Source: an uncultured Gemmatimonadales bacterium
GTDB taxonomy: Bacteria > Gemmatimonadota > Gemmatimonadetes > Gemmatimonadales > GWC2-71-9
Assembly: GCA_963821525.1 (NCBI GenBank)
Contig: CAWGED010000004.1
Location: 256,001 to 320,000 of the forward strand
Length of the DNA stretch: 64,000 nucleotides
Reading direction: 5' to 3'
The notes below the pieces were generated by a model, which was given only the letters and a program-made list of their open reading frames with translations, made no database searches and was not told where the DNA came from. The translations under genes were made by a program, and so were the position numbers. Below, one piece after another: positions 1,185 to 46,082 of this stretch (the first letter of the stretch is position 1; the number at the start of each line of letters is the position of its first letter).

Positions 1185-2306
1185 TCAGACTCCCGCTGGT
1201 GCGTTTCGGGTGGAGCCTCGGGTTCCCTTCACCAACCGTCCTGTTCTTCCTCCGCCCAGCTGGAGGACCAATCCGGTCAACACTCCACCTTCATCCGATA
1301 CGCGACTGTCCTTGAGGGCCCGGTCGGCAGCGAGGGCTGCGGCGATCGCCCCGTTGAGGCGATCCACCGGCCACGCTTCGGCCCAGCGGCTCCAATTACT
1401 CGCCTCTTCCTTCCATTTGCCGAGTCCGAAGAGTCTCAAGCGGCGGATCGCATCGAATACGACCCGTTCGAGAGCGCTTCCCCGCTGTTGCCGGTCGTAA
1501 TGGCTCCGTGCGATCGAGACACCCAGCAGCGAGGTGCCGAGTAGGGTGACCAGCTTGACTCCCGACATTCCCGACTGAGTCAGCACCGGTTGTAGTACGC
1601 GAATCGCGCGCGGAGTATCGTCGCTCAGCACCGCGTCGCGCCAATCGAGGGCGGTCTCACCGTGGCGCACGCCGACCAGCGCTCCGACTCGTTCGGCCGT
1701 GAGTAGCTCCGCGGTCTCCGGCAGGGACGCGAGCTTTTCCAGCTCACTGCGCAACGCGCCGAGGTCGTTGTCGCACGCGGCCGCGAGATGCTCCGCCGCC
1801 CCTGGTTCCAGGCGAACCTTGAGCCGCTCGGCCCGATATGTCACCCACCGGACCACGCGCTCGGGTGGCAGCGGGTCGAAGTGTACCGCGTACGTCCGCG
1901 CGACCAGCTCACCATCCGGCTCCCATTCGCGAATCTTGTCTTCGCTGGGAGCGTTTTCCACCAGGATGACTACGGTCTCTGATGCGGGGTTCTCAAGATA
2001 CTTGAGGAGAACCGGACGCGGAGTGGTCTTCCGCTTCCAGGTCTCGGTGTCGCGCAACACGAGGACCCGCCGGGCCCCGAACATCGGCAACGCGTTGAGC
2101 GCGCCATGCAGTTCGTCGGGGTCCAGACCCGCCGCCGACCTCTGCTCGAGAGCGAAGGATCGGTCCGCCGCGGGTAGCGCCAGATCGAGAATGGTCTGGA
2201 GTGCCTCTTCCCGGAGCACTACCTCCGTGCCGTAGAGATAGTAGACCGGCGACAGCTCGCCCCGGGAAAGAGCCCGGAGCAGATCATCGGAGGAATGGCG
2301 CGGCAT
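1185..2306 (-). CDS. holA: DNA polymerase III delta subunit
   Basis: PVYYLYGTE, LPMFGARRVLVL, DLGALRSELEKL, ADRALKDS motifs. Confidence 0.92.
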   Translation of the reverse strand: MPRHSSDDLLRALSRGELSPVYYLYGTEVVLREEALQTILDLALPAADRSFALEQRSAAGLDPDELHGALNALPMFGARRVLVLRDTETWKRKTTPRPVLLKYLENPASETVVILVENAPSEDKIREWEPDGELVARTYAVHFDPLPPERVVRWVTYRAERLKVRLEPGAAEHLAAACDNDLGALRSELEKLASLPETAELLTAERVGALVGVRHGETALDWRDAVLSDDTPRAIRVLQPVLTQSGMSGVKLVTLLGTSLLGVSIARSHYDRQQRGSALERVVFDAIRRLRLFGLGKWKEEASNWSRWAEAWPVDRLNGAIAAALAADRALKDSRVSDEGGVLTGLVLQLGGGRTGRLVKGTRGSTRNAPAGV

Positions 2307-2371
2307 GCCGGAATTTTAGGGGTGAAGACGGGGGACAAGCTAGGCGGAAACCGCTGCTTCTTTTCTACCTC

Positions 2372-24614: not shown

Positions 24615-25967
24615 ATGGTTCATCTCCTCGCACTGGTCGTTCCGATCTGCGGGATTCTGGGGCTCGATCCCTGCCCCACAACGCCTCCGCCGCCTTACGC
24701 GATTACCGGCGTCAGTGTGCTGCCTATGGATCGGGAGCGGGTACTCGAAGGCTATACGGTAATTGTCCGAAACGGTGCCATCGAGACGCTCGGTCCCGCC
24801 GACAAGGTGTCAGTACCCCAGGATGCGGTCCGAATCGACGGGCGGGGGAAGTATCTCATCCCCGGTCTCACCGAGATGCATACCCACCTCAGTCCGGGTG
24901 CGGGAGATCCGGGAGACGGTCTGGGACGGCAGCTGCGCCTGGCGCTCGCCAACGGGGTCACCACGATGCGCGGCCTCGTCGCTCCGCCCGGGATCATCCC
25001 GATCCGAGACAAAGTGAATTCGGGCGCGATCCTCGGCCCGACGCTCTACGTCGCGGGACCCTCCCTCAACGGGAAGTCAGTCCCCGACCCTGAGACCGGA
25101 CGGCGGATGGTCGAAGACGCCAAGCGCCAGGGATACGACCTGCTCAAGACTCACGGGGGACTGACGGCGGAAAGCTACGACGCAATCGTCGCCGCGGCGA
25201 AGGCAACGGGTCTTCGGTTGGTGGGACACGTGACCCAGGGTTACGGGCTGGATCGCGCGTTGGCAGCCGGACAGCAAGTCGAACACCTGGACGGGTACAT
25301 CGCCGCGGCCCTCCCGGCAGGCGTGGCCGCGCCCGACGACCAGATCATCCCGGACGAGATCGCGGCAAAAGTCACTCCCGAGGGGATTCGAGCGATCGCC
25401 GAGAAGACCAAGAGGGCCGGGGTTTGGAACGGGATGACCCTCGCGATCTTCCAGGTCTTCGCCAGCGGCAAATCACCCGCGGAACTCGCCGCGGCACCCG
25501 AGATGAAGTACGTCCCTGCGCAGACGATTTCGAGCTGGAGCGATCAGATGAAAACCGATGCCCCCGGGTCGCTGCCGGTTTACCTCGCGGTGCGGGATTC
25601 GATCGCGGTCGCCTTGTACCGCGCCGGGGCTCGACTGCTGGTGAGCGGAGATGCTCCCCAGATTTTCCTGGTCGCCGGTTTCGGCACCCACCGCGAGATG
25701 CAGGCGATGGCCCACGCCGGAATACCCACCTACGCCGTCCTCGAAGCGGCTACCCGTAACGCCGCCGAGTGGCTGGGCCGCACCGACGCCGGCACCATCG
25801 CGCCGGGAAAACGGGCCGATCTCGTGTTGCTCGACGCCAATCCCCTGAGTGACATCGCCAACGCGTCTCGCATTCAGGGCGTGATGTTGCGTGGTGTCTG
25901 GTTCGACCGGGCGGCGCTGGACGGGATGCTGGAGGACGTGGAGAAGAGTGCTAAGGGAAGCAATTGA
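24615..25967 (+). CDS. Amidohydrolase family protein, secreted
   Basis: IDGRGKYLIPGLTEMHTH, GVTTMR, GTIAPGKRADLVLLDANPL. Confidence 0.9.
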   Translation: MVHLLALVVPICGILGLDPCPTTPPPPYAITGVSVLPMDRERVLEGYTVIVRNGAIETLGPADKVSVPQDAVRIDGRGKYLIPGLTEMHTHLSPGAGDPGDGLGRQLRLALANGVTTMRGLVAPPGIIPIRDKVNSGAILGPTLYVAGPSLNGKSVPDPETGRRMVEDAKRQGYDLLKTHGGLTAESYDAIVAAAKATGLRLVGHVTQGYGLDRALAAGQQVEHLDGYIAAALPAGVAAPDDQIIPDEIAAKVTPEGIRAIAEKTKRAGVWNGMTLAIFQVFASGKSPAELAAAPEMKYVPAQTISSWSDQMKTDAPGSLPVYLAVRDSIAVALYRAGARLLVSGDAPQIFLVAGFGTHREMQAMAHAGIPTYAVLEAATRNAAEWLGRTDAGTIAPGKRADLVLLDANPLSDIANASRIQGVMLRGVWFDRAALDGMLEDVEKSAKGSN

Positions 25968-26040
25968 AGATTGCAGATTTCAGATTGAAGATCGAGAATA
26001 GACCGATCCGTGGCTGATCACCATCTTCAATCTAACTCAA
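25960..26040. repeat. AAGATTG/CAGATTG heptamer array with a partial inverted arm
   Basis: GCAATTG AAGATTG CAGATTT CAGATTG AAGATCG overlaps the amidohydrolase TGA; ATCTTCAATCT at 26023. Confidence 0.8.
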
Positions 26041-26046
26041 TAACGA

Positions 26047-27580
26047 TTATCCGTCCCCTCCGTCCCCCCGCAGCTTGCCCCGGTCCACCTTGCCCAGGTG
26101 GGTCAGTGGAAGGCCATCCACGAAGCGGATGACCCGGGGATGCTTGTACGGTTCGAGACGATCTCGTACGAAGGCCTTCAGCTCTTCCGCCAGATCGGGC
26201 CGCTGCTCGCGGGGCACTACGAACGCATGTGGCTTCAACAGGCCGCTCGAGTCGACGACTCCGACCACCGCCACCTGCAGGACAGCGGGATGTTGCGAGA
26301 GGCAATTCTCGACTTCCTGCGGAGCCAGCCACTTGCCCGAGACCTTCAGCATGTCGTCCGACCGACCGCAGTAGCTGAAGAATCCATCCGGGGAGCGGCT
26401 CACCATGTCGCCCGAAACGAACCACTCGCCCCGAAATCCCTGCTGGGTCTTCTCCATCTGTTGCCAGTATCCGATGGCGCGCGAGCCGCCGCGGACCCAC
26501 AGGTATCCCACCTCGCCGTCGGCGAGTTCTCTGCCTCCCTCGTCACATACCTTCACCTCAAAGCCCGGTACGACCTCACCCAGCGTCCCGGGACGAATCC
26601 GGCCCAGCCGGTTGGATAGAAAAATGTGCCACATCTCCGCGGTGCCGAGGCCATCGAGCAGGGGAACGCCGAAGGCCTTATCCCATCGGCCATGAAGCTC
26701 CGCCGGCAGTCCTTCGCCTGCCGAGGTGGCCAGTCGGAGCGAGGAGAGGTCGGAGCGAGCCGCCTCCGGCGTCGTTCACCATATGGTTGATCATGGTGGG
26801 GACGTTGATCAGAATCGTGGGCCGGTGGCGGGCGATTTTCTCGAACATGACCTGAGCGGTACAGCGCTCCGGGAAAAGCACCGCGGCGGCGCCTACCGAG
26901 AACGGAAACAGAAGATTGGACCCGGTCGCGTAACCGAAGAACAGTTTGGGTACGGAGAGCGTGACGTCGGTCTCGGTGTAACCGATGACCTGCCGGGCGT
27001 AGCACTCGGTGGTATTGGCGAACGAGGTGTGGGTCTGAACCACGGCCTTGGGATGGCCGGTGGTGCCACCGGAGAAAAGCCAAATCGCGGCGTCGTCCCG
27101 GTGCGAGGGGAAATTCGCCAGCGCCGCCGGGGCATCGGCAAGACGCGCCTGCCAACCCGCATCCTCAACTACCAGCAGCTGCTTGAGGTGCATCGAACGA
27201 CCCGCGGCCGCCTCGAAGGCCTTCGATACATCGCGGTGGATCACCGCCACCGTGGCGCGGGAGTAGTTGAGAAAGTATTCGATCGCGTCGGGCTTGAGTT
27301 CCGGGTTGACCATGACCACGACCGCGCCAATCTTCAGGGTGCCAAACAGCGCCCCGACGAACGCAGGGCTGTCCGGCAGCGCGATCAGCACCCGTTGCTC
27401 GGGCTCTGCCCCTGCCTGGCGCAAGAGGTGGCCGAAGCGGTTCGCCAGAACCTCCACCTGGCCATAGCTCAGCCGTCCCTCATCGGTGATTAGTGCGGTC
27501 CGTTCGCCGCGGCCCTCGCGGACTCGCGCATCGAGAAAGTAGTCCGCGATGTTGAACTGCTCGGGCGGATGGAAGGACAT
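26047..27580 (-). CDS. Benzoate/2-aminobenzoate-CoA ligase (frameshift at about 26760)
   Basis: FNIADYFL, WLFSGGTTGHPK, PKLFFGY, GTAEMWHIFLSN, GRSDDMLKVSGKW, GKVDR. Confidence 0.9.
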
Positions 27581-27625
27581 GATCATCCCGGGTTGGTTCT
27601 GGCGCTCTCCAAGGACACAATAACC

Positions 27626-28391
27626 GTGCGCGAACTCGCCGCAATGACGTGGGAGGAAGTGCGCGACCTCGACGGCCAGGCTTTGGTCGCCATTCTTCCC
27701 GCCGGCGCGGTCGAGGCCCACGGCCCCCATCTGCCGCTCGATACCGACGTTGTCATCGCCAGTGCAATGGCTCGTGCAGGGGCGCGGCGGCTTGCGGCGC
27801 GCCAATATCCGGTTGTGATCCTTCCGCCGCTGGTCTACACCGCGGCCGAGTTCGCGGCCGGGTTCCCCGGGACATTGTCACTCCGGCCCGAGACGGTCAC
27901 TGCCACGGTGGTCGACATTGCCCGCAGCCTGACGAGGCACAAGGTTGCCGTGCTCGCGCTCGCGAATGCGCACCTCGATCCGGCGCACCTGCGTTCACTC
28001 GAGGCCGCCGCAGTGGAAATCCGTCGCGAGGGTCGGCTCCGGGTCGCCTTTCCCAATCTCGCTTCCCGCCCCTGGTCGCTTCGGCTCTCCGACGAGTTCC
28101 GAGAGCGGAGCCTGCCACGCGGGCCAGTTCGAGACCTCGATCGTGCTGGCCGAGCGACCGGACGCGGTACGGGAACGGCTGCGCACGAGCCTGACGCCTA
28201 ATCCCTCATCGCTCTCAGTCGCGATCCGCGAAGGGAAGCAGACCTTCGAAGATGCGGGCGGCCCTCAGGCGTACTTCGGCGCGCCGGCGGCCGCTACGCC
28301 GGAGGAAGGCGTGGCGACGGTCGAAACGCTGGGCGCCATCCTCGAGGAAGCCGTGCTCGCGGAGCTGGGCCGACCGATGGACTCCGCGTGA
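27626..28391 (+). CDS. Creatininase-family amidohydrolase (frameshift at about 28100)
   Basis: MTWEEV, PAGAVEAHGPHLPLDTD, FPGTLSL, NAH, HAGQFETS, YFGAPAAATPEEG. Confidence 0.9.
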
Positions 28392-29164
28392 TTTCTCTGG
28401 CGGGAAAAACGGCCGTGGTGACCGGTGCCGGCAGGGGCATCGGCGCTGCGTGCGCGCGTGCACTGGCCGGAGCCGGCGCCCGGGTGGTACTGGGGGCGCG
28501 GACCCGCGAGTCGGTGGAACGGGTGGCCGCCGATCTTCGGACACTCGGCCATGAAGCAGCGGCGACGGTCTGCGACGTGACCGATCCCGCGAGCGTCGAC
28601 GCTCTCGCCCGGTTCTCGGCCGAACGCTTCGGGGAAGTGACTCTCCTCGTCAACAACGCCGGCATCGGTCACGCGGCCCCACTCGAGCGCCTCACGCTCG
28701 ACGATTGGAATCGGGTCATGGCGGTGAACGCGACCGGCACGTTCCTTTGCACCAAGGCCTTTCTGCCTGCCATGGTCAAGCGGGGGTGGGGGCGGGTGGT
28801 GAATGTGGCGTCGGTTGCCGGCCTCAGCGGAGGCAGGTACATCGCCGCCTATGCGGCCTCCAAACACGCGGTGGTTGGATTTACCCGTTGCGCGGCGATG
28901 GAAGTCGCGGCCGCCGGCGTAACAGTGAACGCAGTCTGCCCTGGCTACGTCGACACCGAGATGACCCGAGAGTCGCTCGAACGCATTGCGATGAAGACCG
29001 GCCGGAGCCGGGAGCAGGCCCTGGAGGCCGTCCTTACGGGAACACCGCAGGGCCGGCTGATTACTCCGGACGAGGTCGCCTTCGAGGTGCTCAGGCTCTG
29101 TGCCGAGGACGCGCGTGAGATCAACGGCCAGACGATCGTGCTGGATGGCGCTGGCCTGACCTGA
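28388..29164 (+). CDS. Short-chain dehydrogenase (3-hydroxyacyl-CoA dehydrogenase-like)
   Basis: TGAGRGIG, NNAG, YAASK, NAVCPGYVDT. Confidence 0.93.
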   Translation: MISLAGKTAVVTGAGRGIGAACARALAGAGARVVLGARTRESVERVAADLRTLGHEAAATVCDVTDPASVDALARFSAERFGEVTLLVNNAGIGHAAPLERLTLDDWNRVMAVNATGTFLCTKAFLPAMVKRGWGRVVNVASVAGLSGGRYIAAYAASKHAVVGFTRCAAMEVAAAGVTVNAVCPGYVDTEMTRESLERIAMKTGRSREQALEAVLTGTPQGRLITPDEVAFEVLRLCAEDAREINGQTIVLDGAGLT

Positions 29165-29181
29165 ACCCGAGTCCCCAATCC

Positions 29182-29592
29182 ATGTCCCGTTACCAGATCA
29201 TCAACCCCGACTCCCTCGGAGTCCCTCGCGGGTGGAACAACGGCCTCCTGGCGGCCACTGGCGGGCGGCTACTCTTCATCGCCGGTCAGACTGCGCGCGA
29301 TGACTCCGGACGGGTAGCGGAGACGGGCTTCGTCGAGCAATTCGATCGGGCCCTGGGGAACGCGCTCGAGGTACTGCGCGCCGCCGGCGGCAGTCCGGAT
29401 GACGTGGGCCGGTTCACGATCTATGTGACCAGTCTCGACGAGTATCGCGGCAGCCTCAAGCCCCTGGGCGAGGTATACCGCCGCCGCATGGGTCGCCATT
29501 ACCCGGCGATGGCGGTGGTTGAGGTCCGGGGTCTGGTAGACCCCGAGGCCAAGGTAGAGATCGAGACGACGGCTGTGCTCGGTCGAGAGTAA
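29182..29592 (+). CDS. RidA/YjgF family enamine deaminase
   Basis: PRGWNNG, LFIAGQ, GRHYPAM, KVEIE. Confidence 0.92.
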   Translation: MSRYQIINPDSLGVPRGWNNGLLAATGGRLLFIAGQTARDDSGRVAETGFVEQFDRALGNALEVLRAAGGSPDDVGRFTIYVTSLDEYRGSLKPLGEVYRRRMGRHYPAMAVVEVRGLVDPEAKVEIETTAVLGRE

Positions 29593-29631
29593 CCTCGCCG
29601 ATCAATTCAACGACTGGAGCCTTCGGCAACC

Positions 29632-30433
29632 ATGCCCTTCGCCGCCCGTTCCTTTCAGTACCGGCTCGACAGCAAGACCGGCGTGGCCACTGCTCACGCT
29701 GAACCGGCCTGAGCGACTCAATGCCCTCACCTTCGAGGTGTACGCCGAGCTGCGTGACGGGTTCCGGGCGCTCGATACCGAGGCGGGCGTCCGCGCGATC
29801 GTGATCACCGGCAACGGGCGCGCGTTTTGTTCCGGGGGAGACGTCGAAGACATCATCGGGGCGCTGTTCGCCCGGGACCAGGAGGGATTGCTCGAGTTCA
29901 CCCGACTCACCTGCGACCTCATTCTGGCAATCCGCCGATGCCGGCGCCCCGTCGTAGCCGCCTTGAACGGCACCGTGGCCGGCGCGGGCGCCGTGATCGC
30001 CGCGGCGTGTGACGTACGCATCGCGGCCGAGACCGCCAAGATCGCCTTTCTTTTCAGCAAGGTCGGTCTCTCCGGCGCCGACATGGGATCCGCCTGGCTG
30101 CTGCCCCGGATCGTAGGATTGGGCCTCGCGACCGAGCTGCTCATGACGGGAGACTTCATCACCGCGGAGCGCGCCCTCGCTATCGGCCTCTACAACCGGG
30201 TAGTACCGGTCGATCGGGTGCTTGCCGAGGCGACCGAGTTCGCCACCCGTCTCGCCAATGGGCCTTCCTTTGCCCTCGGCATTACCAAGGACGCCCTCGA
30301 TCGAGAGGCGACGATGGATCTGGCCTCAGCACTCGAGGCGGAGGCCCAGGCGCAGGCGGCCTGCATGCTGGATCCGAACTTCAAGGAGGCCTACGAGGCG
30401 TTCCGCGCCAAGCGGGAGCCGAAGTTTCAGTAG
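29632..30433 (+). CDS. Enoyl-CoA hydratase family protein (frameshift at about 29691)
   Basis: TLNRPERLNALT, AFCSGGDV, VGLSGADMG. Confidence 0.93.
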
Positions 30434-30437
30434 GGCC

Positions 30438-31608
30438 ATGATGCCCGATACCGATGCGGTTCGCGCCTTCCTGAGCCAGGGCCACCTCGACGATGGCGGT
30501 GGAGGCGGCGACCTTCGCCGGGAACGACATCGCCCCCCGGCCGGAGCCGCGCGACGATCGCTCCGCGCGAGTCGAAGCCCGAGAACTGCTCGGCATGCTC
30601 GGCCGCGGCGGGTGGCTCCGCCCGATTCTCGCGCAGGATCTCCGGGGGTGCTGTCTGGTGCGCGAAGCGCTGGCGGCGGCCTCTCCGCTGGCAGACGCTG
30701 TCTTTGCCCTCCAGGCTCTCGGCTCCACCCCTCTCATCATCGCAGGCGGGCCGGCACTTCGAGATCGCTGGGTTCCGGGCGCGGTCGAGGGTCGGTTGAT
30801 GTCCGCCTTCGCGATGACCGAGCCGGAGGCCGGGTCGGACGTGGCCTCGATGGCCACCACGGCGAGGCGGGAGGGCGATCACTACGTACTCAATGGGACC
30901 AAGACATTCATCTCCAACGCTGGCATCGCCGACTGGTACACGGTCTTTGCCGTGACTGACCCGAACCGCGGGCACCGGGGAATCTCCTGCTTCGCGGTGC
31001 CGGCCGAGACCAAGGGCCTCCGCTTCGTTCGCGCGCTCGAACTGAGCGCGCCGCATCCGCTGGGTGAAATTGCCTTCGAAGAGTGCCGGGTTCCCGCGGA
31101 CGCCATGGTCGGCGCCGAGGGAGAGGGCTTCAAGCTCGGTCTCGCCACCCTCGACCGGCTCCGCCCCACTGTGGCAGCGGCGGCCTGCGGGATGGCGGCT
31201 CGCGCGCTCGCGGAGGCGCTGGCCCACGTGCGTCAGCGCCGGCAGTTCGGAAAACCTCTCGCCGAATTTCAGCTGGTTCAGGAGAAACTCGCCACGATGG
31301 CGACCGAACTCACCGCTGCCCGTCTTCTGGTCTATCGGGCGGCTTGGGAAAAAGACGGAGGCCGCGACCGGATCACGGTTGAGGCCGCGATGGCCAAGGC
31401 CTTCGCCACCGAGGCCGCCCAGCGCGTGGTCGATGCGGCCGTTCAGCTACTGGGAGGCCGCGGGGTGCTCGCCGACCATCCGGTCGACCGGCTGTACCGT
31501 TCGGTGAGGGCTCTCCGTATCTATGAAGGGACCACCGAAGTTCAGCAGCTGATCATCGCGGGGGAGCTGCTCAAGGCCGCAGCACCGAAGACCTCTGATG
31601 CCCACTGA
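30438..31608 (+). CDS. Acyl-CoA dehydrogenase (frameshift at about 30490)
   Basis: AFAMTEPEAGSDV, GTKTFISNAG, RRQFG, QLLGGRG, RIYEGTTEVQ. Confidence 0.95.
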
Positions 31609-31619
31609 TCGGCTCGCGC

Positions 31620-33076
31620 ATGTGGCATCCGGATCCAACTATCAAGCATGATATTCCGGGCGCACGCTGGCCTGGTGAATCCGAGGCGGCGGGCTCCCGC
31701 TGGTTCAGCCCGGTACGCATTGGGGCTCTCACGCTGGAGCAGCGTACCTGGGTGCCCGCCATGGTGCCGTGGCGCGCCACCGAAGAGGGCGACGTCACCC
31801 CGGAGGTGTTGGCCTGGTATGAGCGCTTCGCCCGAGGCCGGCCGGGAGCCATCGTCGTCGAGGCGACCGGAGTCAGGGAAATTCGAAGCGGCCCGCTGCT
31901 CCGGATAGGTCACGACCGATTCATTCCCGGCCTCGCCAAACTGGTCGAGACGGTGCGGCAGGCGAGCGGTGGCCACACCCGATTGTTCATCCAGATCATC
32001 GATTTCCTGAAGATCCGCCGGCGTCCGGAGCCCGCAGCGCTACCTGGGCGAATTTCTGGCCCTCACCGACCGTCACCGCGCCTTGGTACCCGGCACCGAC
32101 CGTGAAATCCGCTCGGCCCTCATCGCGATGTCGGAAACCGAGCCTGCGTGACATACTCACACCCCGTGAGTTCGACGCGCTCATGTACGGCGAGCGCGAG
32201 CTGGTAACTGATCTTGACCTTCCCCATATCAGAGATCTCCCGCAGGTACTCCCCGAGGTCTTTGCCGCCGCCGCGCGCCGGGCCGAGCGGGCCGGATTCG
32301 ACGGCGTTGAGCTGCACTACGCCCATGCCTACACCCTCGCCTCATTTCTCTCGGCACTTAACGACCGCGACGACGGTTATGGTGGTGCGCGAGCGAACCG
32401 GGTGCGGCTTCCGATCGAGGTCTATCAGGCGGTGCGCGGTGCGGTCACCAGCCGTTTCGTGGTCGGCTGCCGGTTTCTGACGGAAGAGTGCATTCCCGGC
32501 GGCAACTCGGCGGAAGATTCGGCATGGTTCGGAGCGGAATTCGCCCGGGCCGGGATGGACTACCTTTCGCTCTCACGGGGTGGAAAGTTCGAGGATGCGA
32601 AACAGCCCCGAATCGGCTGGGCGCGCTACCCCTACACCGGACTCAGTGGCTACGAATGCATGCCCACGGTGCGGTCCGATGCAGCGGGACCCTTCGGGCG
32701 TAACGTCGCGGCCACCGCACTGGTACGGCAGGCGGTACGTGCGGCAGGCCTCGGCACTCCCGTGGTTCTGTGCGGGGGGATTTCCACCTTCGAGCAAGCC
32801 GAAGCGATTCTCCTCCGGGGTGATGCCGACATCGTGGCCTCGGCCCGGCAATCGCTGGCGGATCCCGATTGGTTCCGGAAGGTCCGGTTGGGGCAGGGGA
32901 CGCTGGTCCGGCGATGCGTGTTCACCAACTACTGCGAGGGACTGGATCAGGTGCACAAGCCGGTGACCTGCAAACTCTGGGATCACAAGGGACTCGATGA
33001 AGCCGGTCTGGCGCTCACCGCCGACGGCCGTCGCCGTCTGGTGGCGCCTCCGTGGGAACCGGGAGATCCGGCGTGA
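31620..33076 (+). CDS. NADH:flavin oxidoreductase (Old Yellow Enzyme family) (frameshifts at about 32035 and 32130)
   Basis: PAMVPWRA, IVVEATG, AGFDGVELHYAHAY, NDRDDGYGG..ANRVR, ARQSLADPDW, C-terminal Cys cluster. Confidence 0.88.
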
Positions 33077-35329
33077 AGGTTCACATCGTCGGTGGCGGAC
33101 CGGCGGGTCTCTACCTCGGCATCCTGATGAAGCGGGCCGACCCGAGCCACGAGGTGCTCGTCGTCGAGCGGAACCGAGTCGATGACACCTTCGGTTTCGG
33201 CGTGGTTTTTTCGGAGGCTACCCAGGAGAATCTGGCCCAGGCCGATCCCGAGACGGCTGGGGAAATGACCCGCTCCCTGGCCCGGTGGGACGACATCGAC
33301 ATCCACTATCGCGGTTCGGTCATCACCTCAACCGGGCATGGCTTCGCGGGAATCGAACGACGAGCCCTGCTCGGACATCCTGGCTCGCCGAGCCCGTGAG
33401 CTGGAGGTGGATCTCCGCTTCGGCGTCGGAGATGACCGATCCCGCCGCGCTCGGCTCGGCGGATGTGGTCGTCGCCGCGGACGGCATGAGCAGCATCCTG
33501 CGGGACAGGTACGCCGCGCAGTTCGCTCCTCGCCTCGAGTGGCGGGCCAATCGGTTCGTCTGGCTCGGTACCACCCGGCCCTTTCCGGCCTTCACGTTCT
33601 TCTTCAAGCATTCGCCGCACGGGCTCTGGCGGATTCACGCCTACCAGTATGCTCCCGGCAGCTCCACGTTCATCGTCGAGACTACCGATGCCGCCTGGCG
33701 CGCGACCGGCCTCGCGGAGAGCGACGAAGACGCCACCCTGGCCTTCTGTGAGGCACTCTTCGCGGAGGAGCTGCAGGGGCACCGTCTGCTCAAGAACCGC
33801 TCGCTGTGGCGCCGGTTTCCCACCGTCCGAAATGCGCGGTGGCACGCGGAGAACGTTGTGCTCCTGGGGGACGCCGCGCATACCGCGCACTTTTCAGTCG
33901 GCTCCGGAACCAAGCTCGCCATGGAGGACGCGATCGCGTTGGCGGGGGCGTTGCACCGGCACCGGGGCGTACCTGAGGCCCTCGCCGCTTATGAGGCTGA
34001 GCGGCGCCCCGCCGTCGAGAGTCTCCAGCGCGCGGCCCAGGTGAGCCTGCAATGGTTCGAGGACACCGAGCGCTACATGGACCTGGAGCCGATCCAGTTC
34101 GCCTTCAATCTCCTGACCCGAAGCCTGCGGATTACCCACGACAATCTCAGGGTACGAGATCCCGCCTTCGTGGCTAAGGTGGACCGCTGGTTCGCACAGG
34201 GCGCAGAGCAGCAGAGTGGCCAGCCGGTGCCGCTCGACCCGCCACCGCCACCCCTGTTCACCCCGTTCCGCCTGCGCGACCTCGTCCTGCCCAATCGCGT
34301 CGTGGTCTCGCCGATGTCCATGTACAGCGCGGCCGACGGGATGCCGAACGACTGGCACCTGGTGCATATCGGCAGCCGTGCCATCGGGGGCGCCGGACTG
34401 GTGATGACGGAGATGACCGACGTGAGTCCCGAGGGCCGGATTACACCAGGGTGCGCCGGCCTGTATTCCCCGGCGCATGTAGCGGCCTGGAAGCGGATCG
34501 TGGAGTTCGTCCATACCCACAGCGAAGCGAAGATCGGCATGCAACTGGGCCACGCGGGCCGGAAGGCTTCAACCCGCCTGGCATGGGAGGGGATGGACGA
34601 ACCGCTTGAGGCGGGCAATTGGCCGATCATGGCACCTTCGCCGTTGCCCTATCATCCCTACGGCCAGGTGCCGAGGGAGATGAACCGGGCCGACATGGAT
34701 CGGGTCAGAGACGCAGTTTGTCCGCGCCACCGAGGGCGCCGAAGCCGCCGGGTTTGACCTGCTTGAACTGCACTTCGCCCACGGCTATCTGCTCGCCAGC
34801 TTCATCTCCCCGCTCACCAACCGGCGGACCGATGAGTACGGCGCCGGTTTGCCGGGCCGCATGCGGTTTCCGCTCGAGGTGGTGGAGGCGGTCCGCGCGC
34901 GCGTGGCCGGCCCATAAGCCGCTCTCGGTCCGAATCAGCGCGGTAGATTGGGCACCGGGTGGACTGGAGCCCGACGCCGCGGTTGAGGTGGCTCGACTGC
35001 TCGCCGCGCACGGGGCCGATGTGGTGGATGTCTCGGCCGGACAGACCGTACCCGACGCCAAACCGGTCTACGGCCGCCAGTTCCAGACGCCGTTCAGCGA
35101 CCGGATTCGCCACGAGGCGGGCATCGCGACGATGGCGGTGGGAAACATCTCCTCCTACGCCGACGTGAATACCATCCTGGCCGCGGGGCGGGCAGATCTG
35201 GTCGTGCTGGCCCGGGCTCATCTGTGGGATCCATATTGGACCCGCCACGCCGCTTCCGAGCTGGAGTACCCGGTTCGCTGGCCCAAGCAATACGAATCGT
35301 TGGATCGCTATGCGCCGCGATTGAAGTAG
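33073..35329 (+). CDS. abmA: Bifunctional 2-aminobenzoyl-CoA monooxygenase/reductase (salicylyl-CoA 5-hydroxylase family); about four frameshifts
   Basis: [53 protein letters not shown], fused to an OYE domain ([30 protein letters not shown]). Confidence 0.92.
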
Positions 35330-35350
35330 TCCCCCGAAGACCGAGCCGGT

Positions 35351-36130
35351 ATGCCTACCTATTCCGAATACCTCAAGCTCGAAGAGCTTCTGGCGCTGCA
35401 GCGCCCGCTTTCGCGCGGCCCCGAACATGACGAGATGCTCTTCATCGTCATCCATCAGGTCTACGAGCTCTGGTTCAAGGAGATACTGCACGAGATCTCG
35501 TACCTCGAGCAGCAGCTCGACCGGCACGACGCCGCCAGGGCGCAACACACCCTCAAGCGGATCCTGACGATCCTCAAGGTCCTGGTGGCCCAGCTGGACA
35601 TCCTGGAAACGATGACCCCGCTCGAGTTCCTCTCATTCCGGGACCGCCTCGACTCCGGCAGCGGATTCCAGTCATACCAGTTCCGCGAGCTCGAGTTCGC
35701 GCTGGGCCGCAAGGATCCGCGGGCCCTGGAACGCTACCCTTCCGGTTCCGGCGCGCGACTCGCACTCGAGCGGCGCTTGGGATCTCCTACCCTTTGGGAT
35801 GCGTTCCTCCGTTTCCTCGCCGCGAGCGGGGCCGCGGTTCCAGTCTCACTTCTGAAGCGCGACGTGAGCGGGCCGATCGAGCCTTCTCCCGACCTGCAAG
35901 CCATCCTGATCGAGATCTATCGCAATAACCCGGCTTTGACCGAGCTCTGCGAGCGTCTCGTCGATCTGGACGAAGGCGTGATGGAATGGCGATACCGCCA
36001 TGTGAAAATGGTGCAGCGCACTATCGGCACTCGGCGCGGCACCGGCGGGAGCGCCGGCGCGGAGTACCTGGCCACCACGCTCAACCAGCCGCTCTTCCCC
36101 GATCTCTGGGCCATTCGGACCGAGTTGTGA
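35351..36130 (+). CDS. kynA: Tryptophan 2,3-dioxygenase
   Basis: YSEYLKLEELL, HDEMLFIVIHQVYELWFK, SGFQSYQFRELEF, WRYRHVKMVQRTIG..GTGGS. Confidence 0.97.
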   Translation: MPTYSEYLKLEELLALQRPLSRGPEHDEMLFIVIHQVYELWFKEILHEISYLEQQLDRHDAARAQHTLKRILTILKVLVAQLDILETMTPLEFLSFRDRLDSGSGFQSYQFRELEFALGRKDPRALERYPSGSGARLALERRLGSPTLWDAFLRFLAASGAAVPVSLLKRDVSGPIEPSPDLQAILIEIYRNNPALTELCERLVDLDEGVMEWRYRHVKMVQRTIGTRRGTGGSAGAEYLATTLNQPLFPDLWAIRTEL

Positions 36131-37328
36131 ATCCGGCTTCGCTGTACGCCTCACCCAATGCCCTCGCAGACCACTACCGCCGCTTCGGCGTGGCGGAACG
36201 GCTGCTGCTGACCGGGCACTCGCATCAGGCCTGGCCCGATCGCGGCTTCGACGCCCAAGCCCAGGCCTGGCTGGATGCCGCGCGGTTCGTGGACGACAAA
36301 TGGGAGCATGCCTTCGCCCGGGCCGAACGAGTCCGCCTCGGCTTCCGTCGGCTGCTGGATGACCGGGACGGCCACATCGCGCTGGCTCCCAATACTCACG
36401 AGCTGGTGGTCCGCTTCCTGTCCGCGCTTCCCCTGCGCGAGCGCCCGCGCCTGGTAACCACCGACGGCGAATTTCACACGATCCGCCGTCAGCTCGATCG
36501 CCTGGCCGAGGAAGGCATCGAGTTGGTCCGGGTGCCGGAGGCTCCGCTCGGAGGATTGGTGGAGCGACTGCGCCGCGCGGTGGATGACAGAACCGCTGCG
36601 GTGCTCGTCTCCGCGGTGTTCTTCGACAGCGGTCGCATTGCGCCCAGCCTTGCCGATGTCGCCGAGCAGTGCCGGCGGCATGGGGTATCGCTGCTGGTTG
36701 ATGTGTATCACGCGCTCAACGTGGTGCCATTCTCACTGCTGAAGGAAGGGCTGCTCGACGCGTTCGTGGTCGGTGGCGGTTACAAGTACTGCCAGCTGGG
36801 TGAGGGAAACTGTTTTCTCCGATTCCCCGCCGCCTCGACGCTGCGACCGGTGATTACCGGCTGGTTCAGCGAGTTCTCCGCGTTGACCGAAAAGCAGCGA
36901 GCGGGGCAGGTGCCCTATGGAGAGGGGGGAGATCGTTTCGCAGGCGCGACCTACGACCCGGCAAGTCACTACCGGGCGGCGGCGGTCTTCGACTTTCACG
37001 AGGAGGTAGGACTCACACCGGAATTGTTGCGGGAAGTGAGCCAGCACCAGATCGGTGTGCTGGCCCGAAGCTTCGATGCCCTCGATGCTGACCCCGCGGT
37101 GATCCGTCGCGATCAGACTGTGCCGCTGGACCAGATCGGGGGCTTTCTCGCCCTTGAAGCTCCAGCGGCGGGCGTCCTCGCCGCCGCGTTACATCGTGAG
37201 GGGGTGTTCACCGACTACCGGGGCAACATGCTCCGGCTCGGGCCTGCCCCGTACCTGTCCGACCGTCAGCTCACCGATGCGGTGACCATCCTCGGAAAAA
37301 CGGCACGGGGCGCCCTGCCGGCTATCTC

Positions 37329-37332
<4 letters not shown>
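36127..37332 (+). CDS. kynU: Kynureninase (PLP fold-type I, class V)
   Basis: LTGHSH, DVYH, GGGYKY (PLP Lys), [15 protein letters not shown]; translationally coupled to kynA (GTGA overlap). Confidence 0.85.
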
Positions 37333-38846
<1,514 letters not shown>

Positions 38847-44026: not shown

Positions 44027-46082
44027 GTGACCTCCACTCGTACCGGGCAGCAACGCGCCGCGCTCTCGCGCGACCTTTCGGTATTTCTGGTCCAATTCGC
44101 CATCGCGCTGCACAAGAACAGCGCCTATCCCGAGGGTCACCCCCTGCTGGGATCGGCGGTAGATGCGGTTACCCTCCGGCTCCACTCGCTGCTTAATCAG
44201 CGTCCCACTCTGCTGCTTGGTGTTGCCCGAAATCAACTGCTGATCGAAGGTGTCGCGACCGATCCGGAGAACCCGGTGCTCCGCGACCTCGCGAACCGGT
44301 TGCATCGTCATCAGCTGGGAGCGCTCAAGTTCTCCCAGGGCGCGGCCCCGACCGAGATCGCCGACGTCATGCGGACGCTGAGCGCCGACTCCCGAACCGA
44401 GCCGCTCGGCACCCAGCCGCTTGAGCAGCTGCAGCGCTGGCCCCATGTCAGGCTGTTTCCCCAGGCCTATGATCAACTCGAATTGAACGAGGACGGCGTC
44501 TCCCAGGCTGGGCCATCTCAGCAGCACCACGAGTCTGGCGGGGCGTCTGTGGCTCGGACTCGCGTCCGCGGCGTTGATGCGGGAGAGCGGCGAAGAACTG
44601 CCTCAGGATCCAAAGGAAATCGCTCGCGCCATAAATGGCCGCCGGCGCGACGCCACCTACGACCAAGTCATCGTCAACTATCTGATGCAGCTCAGCCAGG
44701 AGCTGCGGATGAGTCACGGCGCCGAGGCGGCAGAGCTCAAGGATCGACTGGGCTCTCTCCTCGGCGAGCTGGATCAGCAGACCCTCAGCCACCTCCTCGC
44801 ATTGGGTGGCAACCTTGGCCAGCGGCGTCAGCTGATCGGCGATGCAGTGCAGTCGATGCCGATCCAAGCGGTCCTCACCCTGCTCAAAGCCACCGCCGCC
44901 AGCAGCAAGCAGACCATTTCAAATTCGATGGTCCGGCTTCTCACCAAACTCGCGCTTCATGCAGAGCAGGGGAGCCAGCAGATCCGCCAGGACGCCGACC
45001 TCGCCCTGCGTGACACGATCAGGGAACTGGTTTCCAACTGGACACTGGATGATCCCAATCCCGGTTCCTATGGCAAGGTGCTGGAGCGTCTGGCTGGTCC
45101 GGTGCCAGCGGGCACTCCCTCAAGCGGGGCCACCCAATTCGAGGCGCGGCGCATTGTCGAAATGAGCCTCGAAATCGGCACCATGGGCGCCAGCGTGAAG
45201 CGGGCAGTGGATCAGATGCTGGAAGAAGGGCACGCCATGGAGTTGCTTCAGCTGCTCGATGGACCGCAGGCGCCGCCCGATCTTGTCGATGACATCTGGG
45301 GGTATCTGGCCACCCCCCAGAGCATTCGGCAACTCCTTATGAACGAGCCGCGAGACACCGAGGTGGTGGAGCGGCTGGTGGCACGGATGGGCCTGGACGC
45401 GGCGGAGCCCCTGCTGGATGCGCTGGAAATTGCCGATTCCCGCACCTCCCGGCGGCGCCTCCTGACCCGGCTGGGAAAGCTGGGCACCGATATCGGGCAG
45501 TCGGTGGTGGATCGGCTCCCGGGCTCACCTTGGTTCGTGCAGCGTAACCTGCTGGCACTCATGGGCTCCATGCCCTCGTGGCCCCGGAGTTTTTCGCCCG
45601 CCACCTATGCCGCCAACACCGATCCCCGGGTCCGCCGGGAGGCACTGAAATTGATGTTGCGGCTACCCGATTATCGGGACGAGGCGATCGGTGCCACCTT
45701 CGCGGATGATGACGAACAGGTTATCCGGCTCGGTCTTACGGCCGCGGCGGAGGGGTGTCCGGCGCCTGCGGTGCCCCGCCTCATGACCATGCTAAGAGCC
45801 CATGGCAACGACGTTGAGCTCCGGGCTCTGGGCATCAGGGTGCTGGGGACCGTGCGCACTCCGGCGACCCGCGATTGGCTGGTGGACCACGCGTTGACCA
45901 AGAAGAAGCTGTTTCGGGGGCGTCGGCTGATGGCGAAATCGCCGGAGATACTCGCCATCGTCGCGGCACTGGCGCGGGGCTGGCGCGAGGACAAGGCCGC
46001 GGCGGAAGTGCTCCGTCTGGCGCAGTCGAGCGGTGACGCCGAAATCCGGGCGGTGGCACAGTTGGGCCGGGAGCCTGCATGA
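44027..46082 (+). CDS. HEAT-repeat protein with uncharacterised N-terminal YP.GHP domain (frameshift at about 44535)
   Basis: AYPEGHP; WFVQRNLLALM, DPRVRREALKLM, DEQVIRLGL, DAEIRAVA HEAT-like repeats; start approximate. Confidence 0.8.

Follow-up and report, generated by a model that had tools for sequence, protein, structure and literature searches.

What does a creatininase-family hydrolase do at the head of an operon for the breakdown of tryptophan and 2-aminobenzoate? This question is raised by a stretch of 64,000 nucleotides (nt) from an uncultured Gemmatimonadales bacterium (GCA_963821525.1, contig CAWGED010000004.1, positions 256,001 to 320,000; hereafter the window), in which a gene for such a hydrolase, here called Crea, precedes genes of the 2-aminobenzoyl-CoA (abm) and kynurenine (kyn) pathways. 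The operon encodes the tryptophan 2,3-dioxygenase KynA and a KynU-like enzyme, and no match to the arylformamidase KynB (TIGR03035) was found in the window genome at E <= 1e-30. A sequence-only reading of the locus had proposed that Crea fills the missing step between KynA and KynU. We found that Crea is a binuclear-metal amidohydrolase of the creatininase fold and, with somewhat less than an even chance of being right, we put it forward as the candidate aryl-formamidase of the abm/kyn operon, its substrate and reaction being inferred from context. Within a known fold, Crea forms a new and well-delimited branch, and the reaction for which it is a candidate is a known one.

In the window, the gene is split into two frames, which both match the Pfam family Creatininase (PF02633, gathering cut-off 31.3 bits): frame A (P0001, 27626-28201) scores 131.1 bits over profile positions 2-132 and frame B (P0002, 27945-28391) 44.4 bits over positions 154-237. 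The start is a conserved GTG at 27626, and an ATG further upstream (27569) gives the 273-amino-acid (aa) form of some database entries. The three motifs pointed out by the sequence-only reading were all located in Crea (Table 1) and are kept in 20 intact homologues. By aligning a profile of these homologues to creatininase (1J2T and 1Q3K, 68-72 bits), we found that the binuclear-metal ligands E30, H32, D41, H116 and E169 as well as the catalytic H164 are invariant in all 20; we take the roles of their creatininase counterparts (E34, H36, D45, H120, E183 and H178) to be those of the structure papers. The AlphaFold model of Crea (pLDDT 78.9, pTM 0.83) matched only creatininase-fold structures, with TM scores of 0.62-0.73 (by structure comparison, 0.72 against 3LUB and 0.64-0.65 against 1J2T/1Q3K), and Crea is predicted to adopt this fold. 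Together, the PF02633 matches in both frames, the aligned metal ligands and catalytic His and the modelled fold indicate that the hydrolytic machinery of Crea is intact.

If Crea takes the place of KynB, both should rarely share a genome. We surveyed 50 genomes with Crea from five phyla, including the unpublished G043, on which no claim rests alone. First, KynA (PF03301) is present in all 50. Second, none of them reached the TIGR03035 cut-off of 223 bits: the best score was 134-193 bits in ten genomes, with at least 180 bits in two, and below 100 bits or nothing in the other 40. We then sampled 400 Gemmatimonadota genomes plus the window's own, in which high-scoring KynB was defined by E <= 1e-48. 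Counts for families f1 and f4-f9 cover 283 genomes (dropping the unpublished G232 and G147 shifts each affected count by one). Crea orthologues were found in 117 of the 283, of which 114 also have KynA and one a high-scoring KynB. Of the 177 KynA-positive genomes, Crea alone is found in 113, high-scoring KynB alone in 19, both in one (G272, whose KynB is not adjacent to KynA) and neither in 44. Because related genomes are not independent samples, these counts describe a pattern, overstate its statistical support and do not amount to a statistical test. The co-occurrence with kynA and the anti-correlation with kynB that the sequence-only reading had called for are thus both observed.

The partners of KynB and Crea differ as well. 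Of 12 KynB loci retrieved from genomes without Crea, 7 have kynB directly after kynA, and canonical kynureninase lies within 3 kb of a kynA-kynB pair in four genomes. Kynureninase above its cut-off was found in 17/19 KynB-high genomes, 0/25 with Crea, 3/30 with neither and 0/6 of family f2, in which KynB (E <= 1e-30) is present in 70 of 93 genomes and matches to the Crea family are weak paralogues (4) or a distant relative (1). The product of the operon's kynU, which had been taken for kynureninase, turned out not to be the canonical enzyme: it has no match to TIGR01814 at E < 0.01, reaches KYNU_C and Aminotran_5 below threshold only and shows the low identity given in Table 1. It is predicted to be a non-canonical, very divergent kynureninase-like enzyme. 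No kynureninase above cut-off was found in the window genome (best match 77.7 bits). The KynU-like enzyme pairs with KynA in many genomes without KynB, another example being L009:18812-20008. We conclude that the phylum has two anthranilate-making modules, the canonical KynU-KynA-KynB and KynA plus the KynU-like enzyme without KynB, and that Crea is found exactly where the latter meets the CoA-ligase/AbmA block, placed at the ligase.

Some Crea genomes have proteins of the KynB family that score 134-163 bits on the KynB model. None of them lies beside KynA, and we treated them as a different cyclase. Of seven scanned loci (L089-L095, scoring 134-151 bits), three encode a GntP permease domain and one a ThuA domain in one open frame with the cyclase, and L134-L137 match this GntP-associated type rather than the KynA-linked KynB. 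This second PF04199 type, recurrent in Gemmatimonadales, is probably not a kynurenine formamidase. The two cyclase-family proteins of the window genome, with 95 and 60 bits on TIGR03035, were likewise not called KynB, although they may still belong to it. The 95-bit protein (337 aa; L001, G000:C5:406266-409784, open reading frame 1315-2328, minus strand) has an HGGTHLDAP motif and a lipoprotein-like leader; the other one lacks the His motif. Finally, an amidohydrolase encoded at 24615-25967 of the window was rejected as the missing formamidase, as it was found in none of 80 related genome loci at E <= 1e-10.

Then, we compared the operon with abm clusters of the classical type. The seven AbmA loci retrieved from Gemmatimonadota without Crea all have a 'type II' set consisting of AbmA, an SDR oxidoreductase, an enoyl-CoA hydratase (ECH), an acyl-CoA dehydrogenase (ACAD), the ligase and RidA, and no Crea. 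The same set, together with MarR and an ABC transporter and again without Crea, is found on an annotated Phyllobacterium plasmid, and we presume that the abm cluster of Azoarcus evansii matches it. Judging from the plasmid and the seven loci, the classical 2-aminobenzoyl-CoA cluster of the Azoarcus type contains no creatininase-family, kynA or kynU-like gene. Its genes are about 50% identical to those of the window, except for the ligase with only 26-41%. Relative to this cluster, the operon type of the window adds Crea, KynA, the KynU-like gene and, in some cases, an old-yellow-enzyme-type (OYE) reductase. Since classical clusters do without Crea, it is best seen as an add-on that arrived with kynA and the kynU-like gene; homologues in abm clusters lacking kynA, which the sequence-only reading had named as evidence against itself, are not what these clusters show. 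In the single-contig genome G177, a classical-type abm cluster abuts a kynA-kynB pair (L098, G177:C1:2118000-2137999); this genome gave no kynureninase match at E <= 1e-10, and the 20 kb fetched no KynU-like match.

The gene neighborhood of Crea was analyzed in 80 genome loci (the best 80 of more than 570 relatives in genome contigs) and 80 metagenome loci, each count being limited to loci with a flank long enough to see the neighbor. The usual order, Crea-SDR-RidA-ECH-ACAD-(OYE)-AbmA-KynA-KynU-like, is the same in most of the 160 loci, and the operon type with its divergent ligase is conserved across genomes. The 2-aminobenzoate-CoA ligase, divergent and at most 3 kb upstream, is the most faithful neighbor (105/115 loci); SDR directly follows Crea in 110/126, and a Kyn gene lies within the Crea locus in 62/98. 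In favor of a formamidase are the loci with upper-pathway genes only. Among the 80 with at least 5 kb downstream of Crea, seven lack lower-pathway genes, and these have the ligase in all cases and Kyn genes in three (L020, L023 and L085). The Acidobacteriota genome G037 (contigs longer than 3 Mb) has Crea-SDR-RidA-KynA-KynU-like and no AbmA, with its best ligase, 41% identical, elsewhere. In L014, the divergent ligase is followed by Crea-KynA-KynU and then by a transposase. Only one of 56 loci, L059 from Polyangiaceae, lacks both ligase and Kyn genes, and there an aldehyde dehydrogenase (ALDH) gene follows Crea.

These data suggest how Crea could work. Tryptophan 2,3-dioxygenase would leave an N-formyl group on the aromatic amine, which Crea would remove, and the freed anthranilate would pass to the divergent 2-aminobenzoate-CoA ligase and on to AbmA. 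The substrate would be N-formylkynurenine or, if the KynU-like enzyme acts first, N-formylanthranilate. N-formylkynurenine is accepted by kynureninase, and metabolic maps show N-formylanthranilate as a substrate of arylformamidase. N-formylanthranilate may indeed be the substrate rather than N-formylkynurenine: such a version would explain why Crea lies beside the CoA ligase, why KynA/KynU-like pairs can stand alone without Crea and why KynB never accompanies the KynU-like enzyme. In the inverted order, N-formylkynurenine would be converted to N-formylanthranilate and then to anthranilate, with Crea as the gate into the 2-aminobenzoyl-CoA pathway. It is conceivable, albeit rather doubtful, that soil Gemmatimonadota and members of several other phyla thus make anthranilate from tryptophan by an alternative route in which the KynU-like enzyme and Crea, possibly in inverted order, replace kynureninase and KynB. 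In the accessible text of the literature on N-formylanthranilate (PMC6221969 among the sources), we found no bacterial deformylase gene.

Many bacteria have kynA and kynU and no recognizable formamidase, here 44 of the 177 KynA-positive Gemmatimonadota plus the Crea-bearing genomes. If the proposal is true, Crea would add another, unrelated fold to EC 3.5.1.9 beside the cyclase-fold KynB (the eukaryotic enzymes of this class being alpha/beta-hydrolases), a widespread uncharacterized branch of the creatininase family would obtain a function, and the gene set would be complete for a tryptophan-to-acetyl-CoA route that is common among soil bacteria, few of which are in culture.

Several observations weigh against a formamidase, and some of them favor other functions. 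First, AbmA is present in 114 of the 117 Crea genomes and hence as tightly linked as KynA, so that the profiles cannot separate the two modules. Moreover, the closest neighbors of Crea are the ligase and SDR, not KynA or KynU, and Polyangiaceae loci carry Crea with lower-pathway genes only (SDR, RidA, ECH, ACAD and OYE), without Kyn genes nearby. Crea might therefore act in the lower 2-aminobenzoyl-CoA pathway, at a hydrolytic step after AbmA. The placement of SDR and RidA directly after Crea (110/126 loci) agrees with this idea, as does the presence in the family of IolN, a cyclic diketone hydrolase by its NCBIfam model name (44.9 bits); in addition, PMC3534580 describes the steps after AbmA as unresolved and proposes a cyclohexanedione-carboxyl-CoA intermediate. 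We nevertheless consider such a role unlikely. Classical abm clusters have the same lower enzymes, including RidA, and no Crea, seven loci without any lower-pathway gene have Crea together with the ligase or Kyn genes, and G037 has Crea without AbmA. A lower-pathway step would also leave unexplained the near-exclusivity with KynB and the pairing with the KynU-like enzyme.

Second, the hydrolase also occurs in other settings. In a metagenome variant (L162, L164 and L177), Crea lies between an alpha/beta-hydrolase and an aldehyde dehydrogenase, with ECH, a fatty-acid hydroxylase and the ligase on the other strand. In G301, whose genome has KynB, a distant relative with an NNHFEPEH loop (PF02633, 172.5 bits) stands beside an AbmA-like gene, hydantoinase A/B and a ligase, so that members of the wider clade also occur outside kyn contexts. 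Such loci would fit an amidohydrolase of broader range, acting on N-acyl-arylamines or lactams, that feeds the CoA ligase or proofreads for it and is not tied to the tryptophan route; possible substrates are N-acetyl- or other N-acyl-anthranilates and a ligase side product. Under this hypothesis, one would expect the ligase to be the most constant neighbor, as it is (105/115), and loci without Kyn genes in view, four of which were seen (with either the ligase and Crea alone or, in addition, an alpha/beta-hydrolase and ALDH), besides G301 with its ligase, AbmA-like gene and hydantoinase A/B. One would not expect KynA in 50/50 and 114/117 of the Crea genomes, nor Kyn genes in 62/98 Crea loci, and we regard this function as quite unlikely. 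The G301 cluster itself (L117, G301:C22, 2759-15107) comprises an ABC transporter, an AbmA-like protein with a luciferase-like N-terminal domain, the Crea-like gene, hydantoinase B, the ligase and hydantoinase A, and apparently encodes another aromatic or lactam pathway with a hydrolase of the same clade. A further hydrolase of unassigned role in the vicinity of AbmA is the 565-aa 'amidohydrolase family protein' on a plasmid of Arthrobacter sp. ERGS1:01 (L253), which lies together with canonical kynU, RidA, a CoA ligase and an AbmA-like gene.

Third, a dedicated formamidase is not obligatory. This follows from the 44 KynA-positive genomes that have neither gene (Crea or high-scoring KynB): in 8 of 13 KynA loci retrieved from such genomes, KynA and the KynU-like enzyme form a stand-alone pair, in whose flanks no hydrolase family recurs. 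In genus g4, where KynA has a locus apart from the abm and Crea block, two genomes keep KynA and have neither Crea nor AbmA, the loss of Crea going along with that of the abm block. G009 has both Crea and a second kynA directly followed by a 193-bit KynB. Also, our literature search found nothing linking the creatininase family to kynurenine formamidase or, more widely, to kynurenine or anthranilate metabolism. The proposal that Crea fills the KynB gap is therefore only partly sustained: its near-exclusivity with KynB and its status as an add-on to abm speak for it, whereas the 44 of 177 genomes with neither gene, the ligase as the tightest partner and G009 with both speak against it.

Regarding the place of Crea within its family, it belongs to a distinct, conserved creatininase subfamily with the signature EAHGPHLPL(D/E)TD ... 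NAH(L)DPxH ... GACHAGQFETS, which ranges over Gemmatimonadota, Eisenbacteria, Planctomycetota, Thermoanaerobaculia/Acidobacteriota and Polyangiaceae. The NAHLDPAH loop had been described as replacing a usual N-x-H-G-G-N loop. It does mark the subfamily, but N-x-H-G-G-N is not universal: given that creatininase itself has NGHYEN, NAHLDP is a subfamily signature rather than a swap of a universal motif. A first homologue search returned 3695 database proteins at E <= 1e-10, most of which may be other creatininase-family branches, and only generic creatininase-family clusters were found for Crea in the ESM Atlas. In one genus (G182, G255, G281, G297, G324, G376 and G404), the Crea profile match comes in two pieces, about 70-160 nt apart within one open frame, as would be expected if some tens of residues were inserted around position 130.

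By scoring the intact orthologue against NCBIfam models, we found that Crea falls into none of the named families MftE, creatininase, IolN and ArfB. The top-scoring one is MftE, the mycofactocin peptidyl-dipeptidase (TIGR03964), with 115.9 bits against a cut-off of 172. MftE has the same fold and is an amide-bond hydrolase, and an MftE is also the nearest relative on annotated plasmids (38.7% identical), where no close Crea orthologue was found; unlike in MftE systems, no mycofactocin genes were seen among the scanned neighbors of Crea, which are abm and kyn genes. Creatininase (1J2T/1Q3K; TIGR04448) shares with Crea the fold (TM score 0.62-0.68; best PDB sequence match 72 bits), the five metal ligands and the catalytic His. 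However, the TIGR04448 scores of 89.5 bits for the orthologue and 68.8 bits for frame A of the window lie far below the equivalog cut-off of 235, the loop that comes after the third ligand is HLD(P) in Crea and HYE(N) in creatininase, and the gene context of Crea is aromatic-CoA and tryptophan catabolism, not creatinine. IolN, the 3-dehydro-scyllo-inosose hydrolase (NF041098), belongs to the same family and provides a precedent for ring-opening hydrolysis, with 44.9 bits against a cut-off of 245.

The sequence-only reading had relied on ArfB as a precedent. The formamidopyrimidine deformylase ArfB (NF033501) is of the same family and, by its model name, hydrolyses an N-formyl group. In sequence, the analogy is weak: ArfB is only remotely related to Crea (17.6 bits, cut-off 180), to which MftE and creatininase are closer. 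By their model names, the creatininase family thus includes a formamide hydrolase (ArfB), a peptide hydrolase (MftE) and a cyclic amide hydrolase (creatininase). KynB (TIGR03035/PF04199) has the unrelated cyclase fold, and neither of its models matches the Crea protein. If Crea is a formamidase, it is so by analogy and not by membership in KynB. KynB catalyzes the reaction proposed for Crea, adjoins kynA and goes with canonical kynU, whereas Crea adjoins the CoA ligase and goes with the divergent KynU-like enzyme.

Is the gene functional in the window organism, where an extra base interrupts its frame? This base, first suspected near 28100 from the sequence, was confirmed in three ways. First, Crea homologues with an intact frame (248-273 aa), which reach 97% identity, have the sequence LRLSDEFRSGACHAGQFETS at the break. 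Second, the same-genus orthologue shows 86% nucleotide identity over all 766 nt, with a single gap at the extra window base at 28102. Third, contigs of all four soil or rhizosphere runs (from four studies), compared over 26000-37400 and derived from related strains (90-99% identity) that are not demonstrably the same strain, have one letter fewer at 28100/28101. The run contigs also omit single letters at 26764, 29691/29692, 30491, 32035, 32140, 33372, 33432, 34714 and 34897. Compared to orthologues of a related genome, one frame change was counted in the ligase, one in Crea, two in OYE and at least three in AbmA.

A true pseudogene, with Crea and the operon decaying in the window organism, is improbable. 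The breaks are dense, at least ten in the 11.3-kb operon as against two clear cases in 18 kb of flanks. However, all ten are single-base insertions in the window, none in a homopolymer and none common to the relatives in the four runs, with no deletion and no stop substitution among them; isolated 1-nt insertions also split open reading frames outside the operon, at 44499 and 52612, by comparison of 18 kb with the same-genus genome; the assembly has 19 contigs and 81% completeness compared to 98% for its congener; and intact orthologues reach 97% identity. The frame break is thus very likely an assembly artefact, and the organism itself probably has an intact gene. Errors of the insertion type seem to occur all over the assembly, and frame breaks elsewhere in this genome are not to be taken as pseudogenes or gene decay without checking. 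An in-frame TGA flagged in many orthologues was considered as selenocysteine or read-through and rejected, as it is the natural C-terminal stop codon.

Table 1. Features of the Crea gene and of the abm/kyn operon in the window.
Feature	Position	Strand	Remarks
Creatininase-family hydrolase gene (Crea)	27626-28391	+	about 254 aa with the extra base discounted
Motif EAHGPHLPLDTD	27713-27748	+	E30, H32 and D41 align with E34, H36 and D45, metal ligands of creatininase
NAHLDPAH loop	27965-27988	+	subfamily signature; H116/L117/D118 align with creatininase H120/Y121/E122
HAGQFETS	28116-28139	+	frame B; H164 aligns with creatininase H178, E169 with E183
One extra base, context ttcCGAgagc	28100-28102		frame-shifting in Crea; missing in the same-genus orthologue and in contigs of 4/4 runs
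Aryl-CoA ligase, AbmG-like, benzoate-CoA ligase family	26047-27586	-	divergent from Crea, start codons about 39 bp apart; break near 26764
SDR oxidoreductase	28388-29164	+	start overlaps the Crea stop
RidA/L-PSP family protein	29182-29592	+	
ECH family protein	29632-30433	+	NF006107, 327 bits; frame break near 29691
ACAD	30493-31608	+	
OYE-type flavin reductase	31620-33076	+	two frame breaks, 32035 and 32140
AbmA-like fusion of FAD monooxygenase and OYE reductase	33073-35329	+	NF006101; four breaks, 33372, 33432, 34714 and 34897
Tryptophan 2,3-dioxygenase KynA	35351-36130	+	TIGR03036 277 bits, PF03301 216 bits
KynU-like class-V pyridoxal-phosphate enzyme	36127-37332	+	26% identity to canonical kynureninase over 347 aa; YKY lysine motif kept

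As had been proposed, Crea is the first gene of the operon: it heads ten co-directional genes (27626-37332) that overlap or are separated by gaps of at most 59 bp. The stand-alone OYE between ACAD and AbmA is found in a subset of the related operons only and is, for example, not present in L013, L016 and L027.

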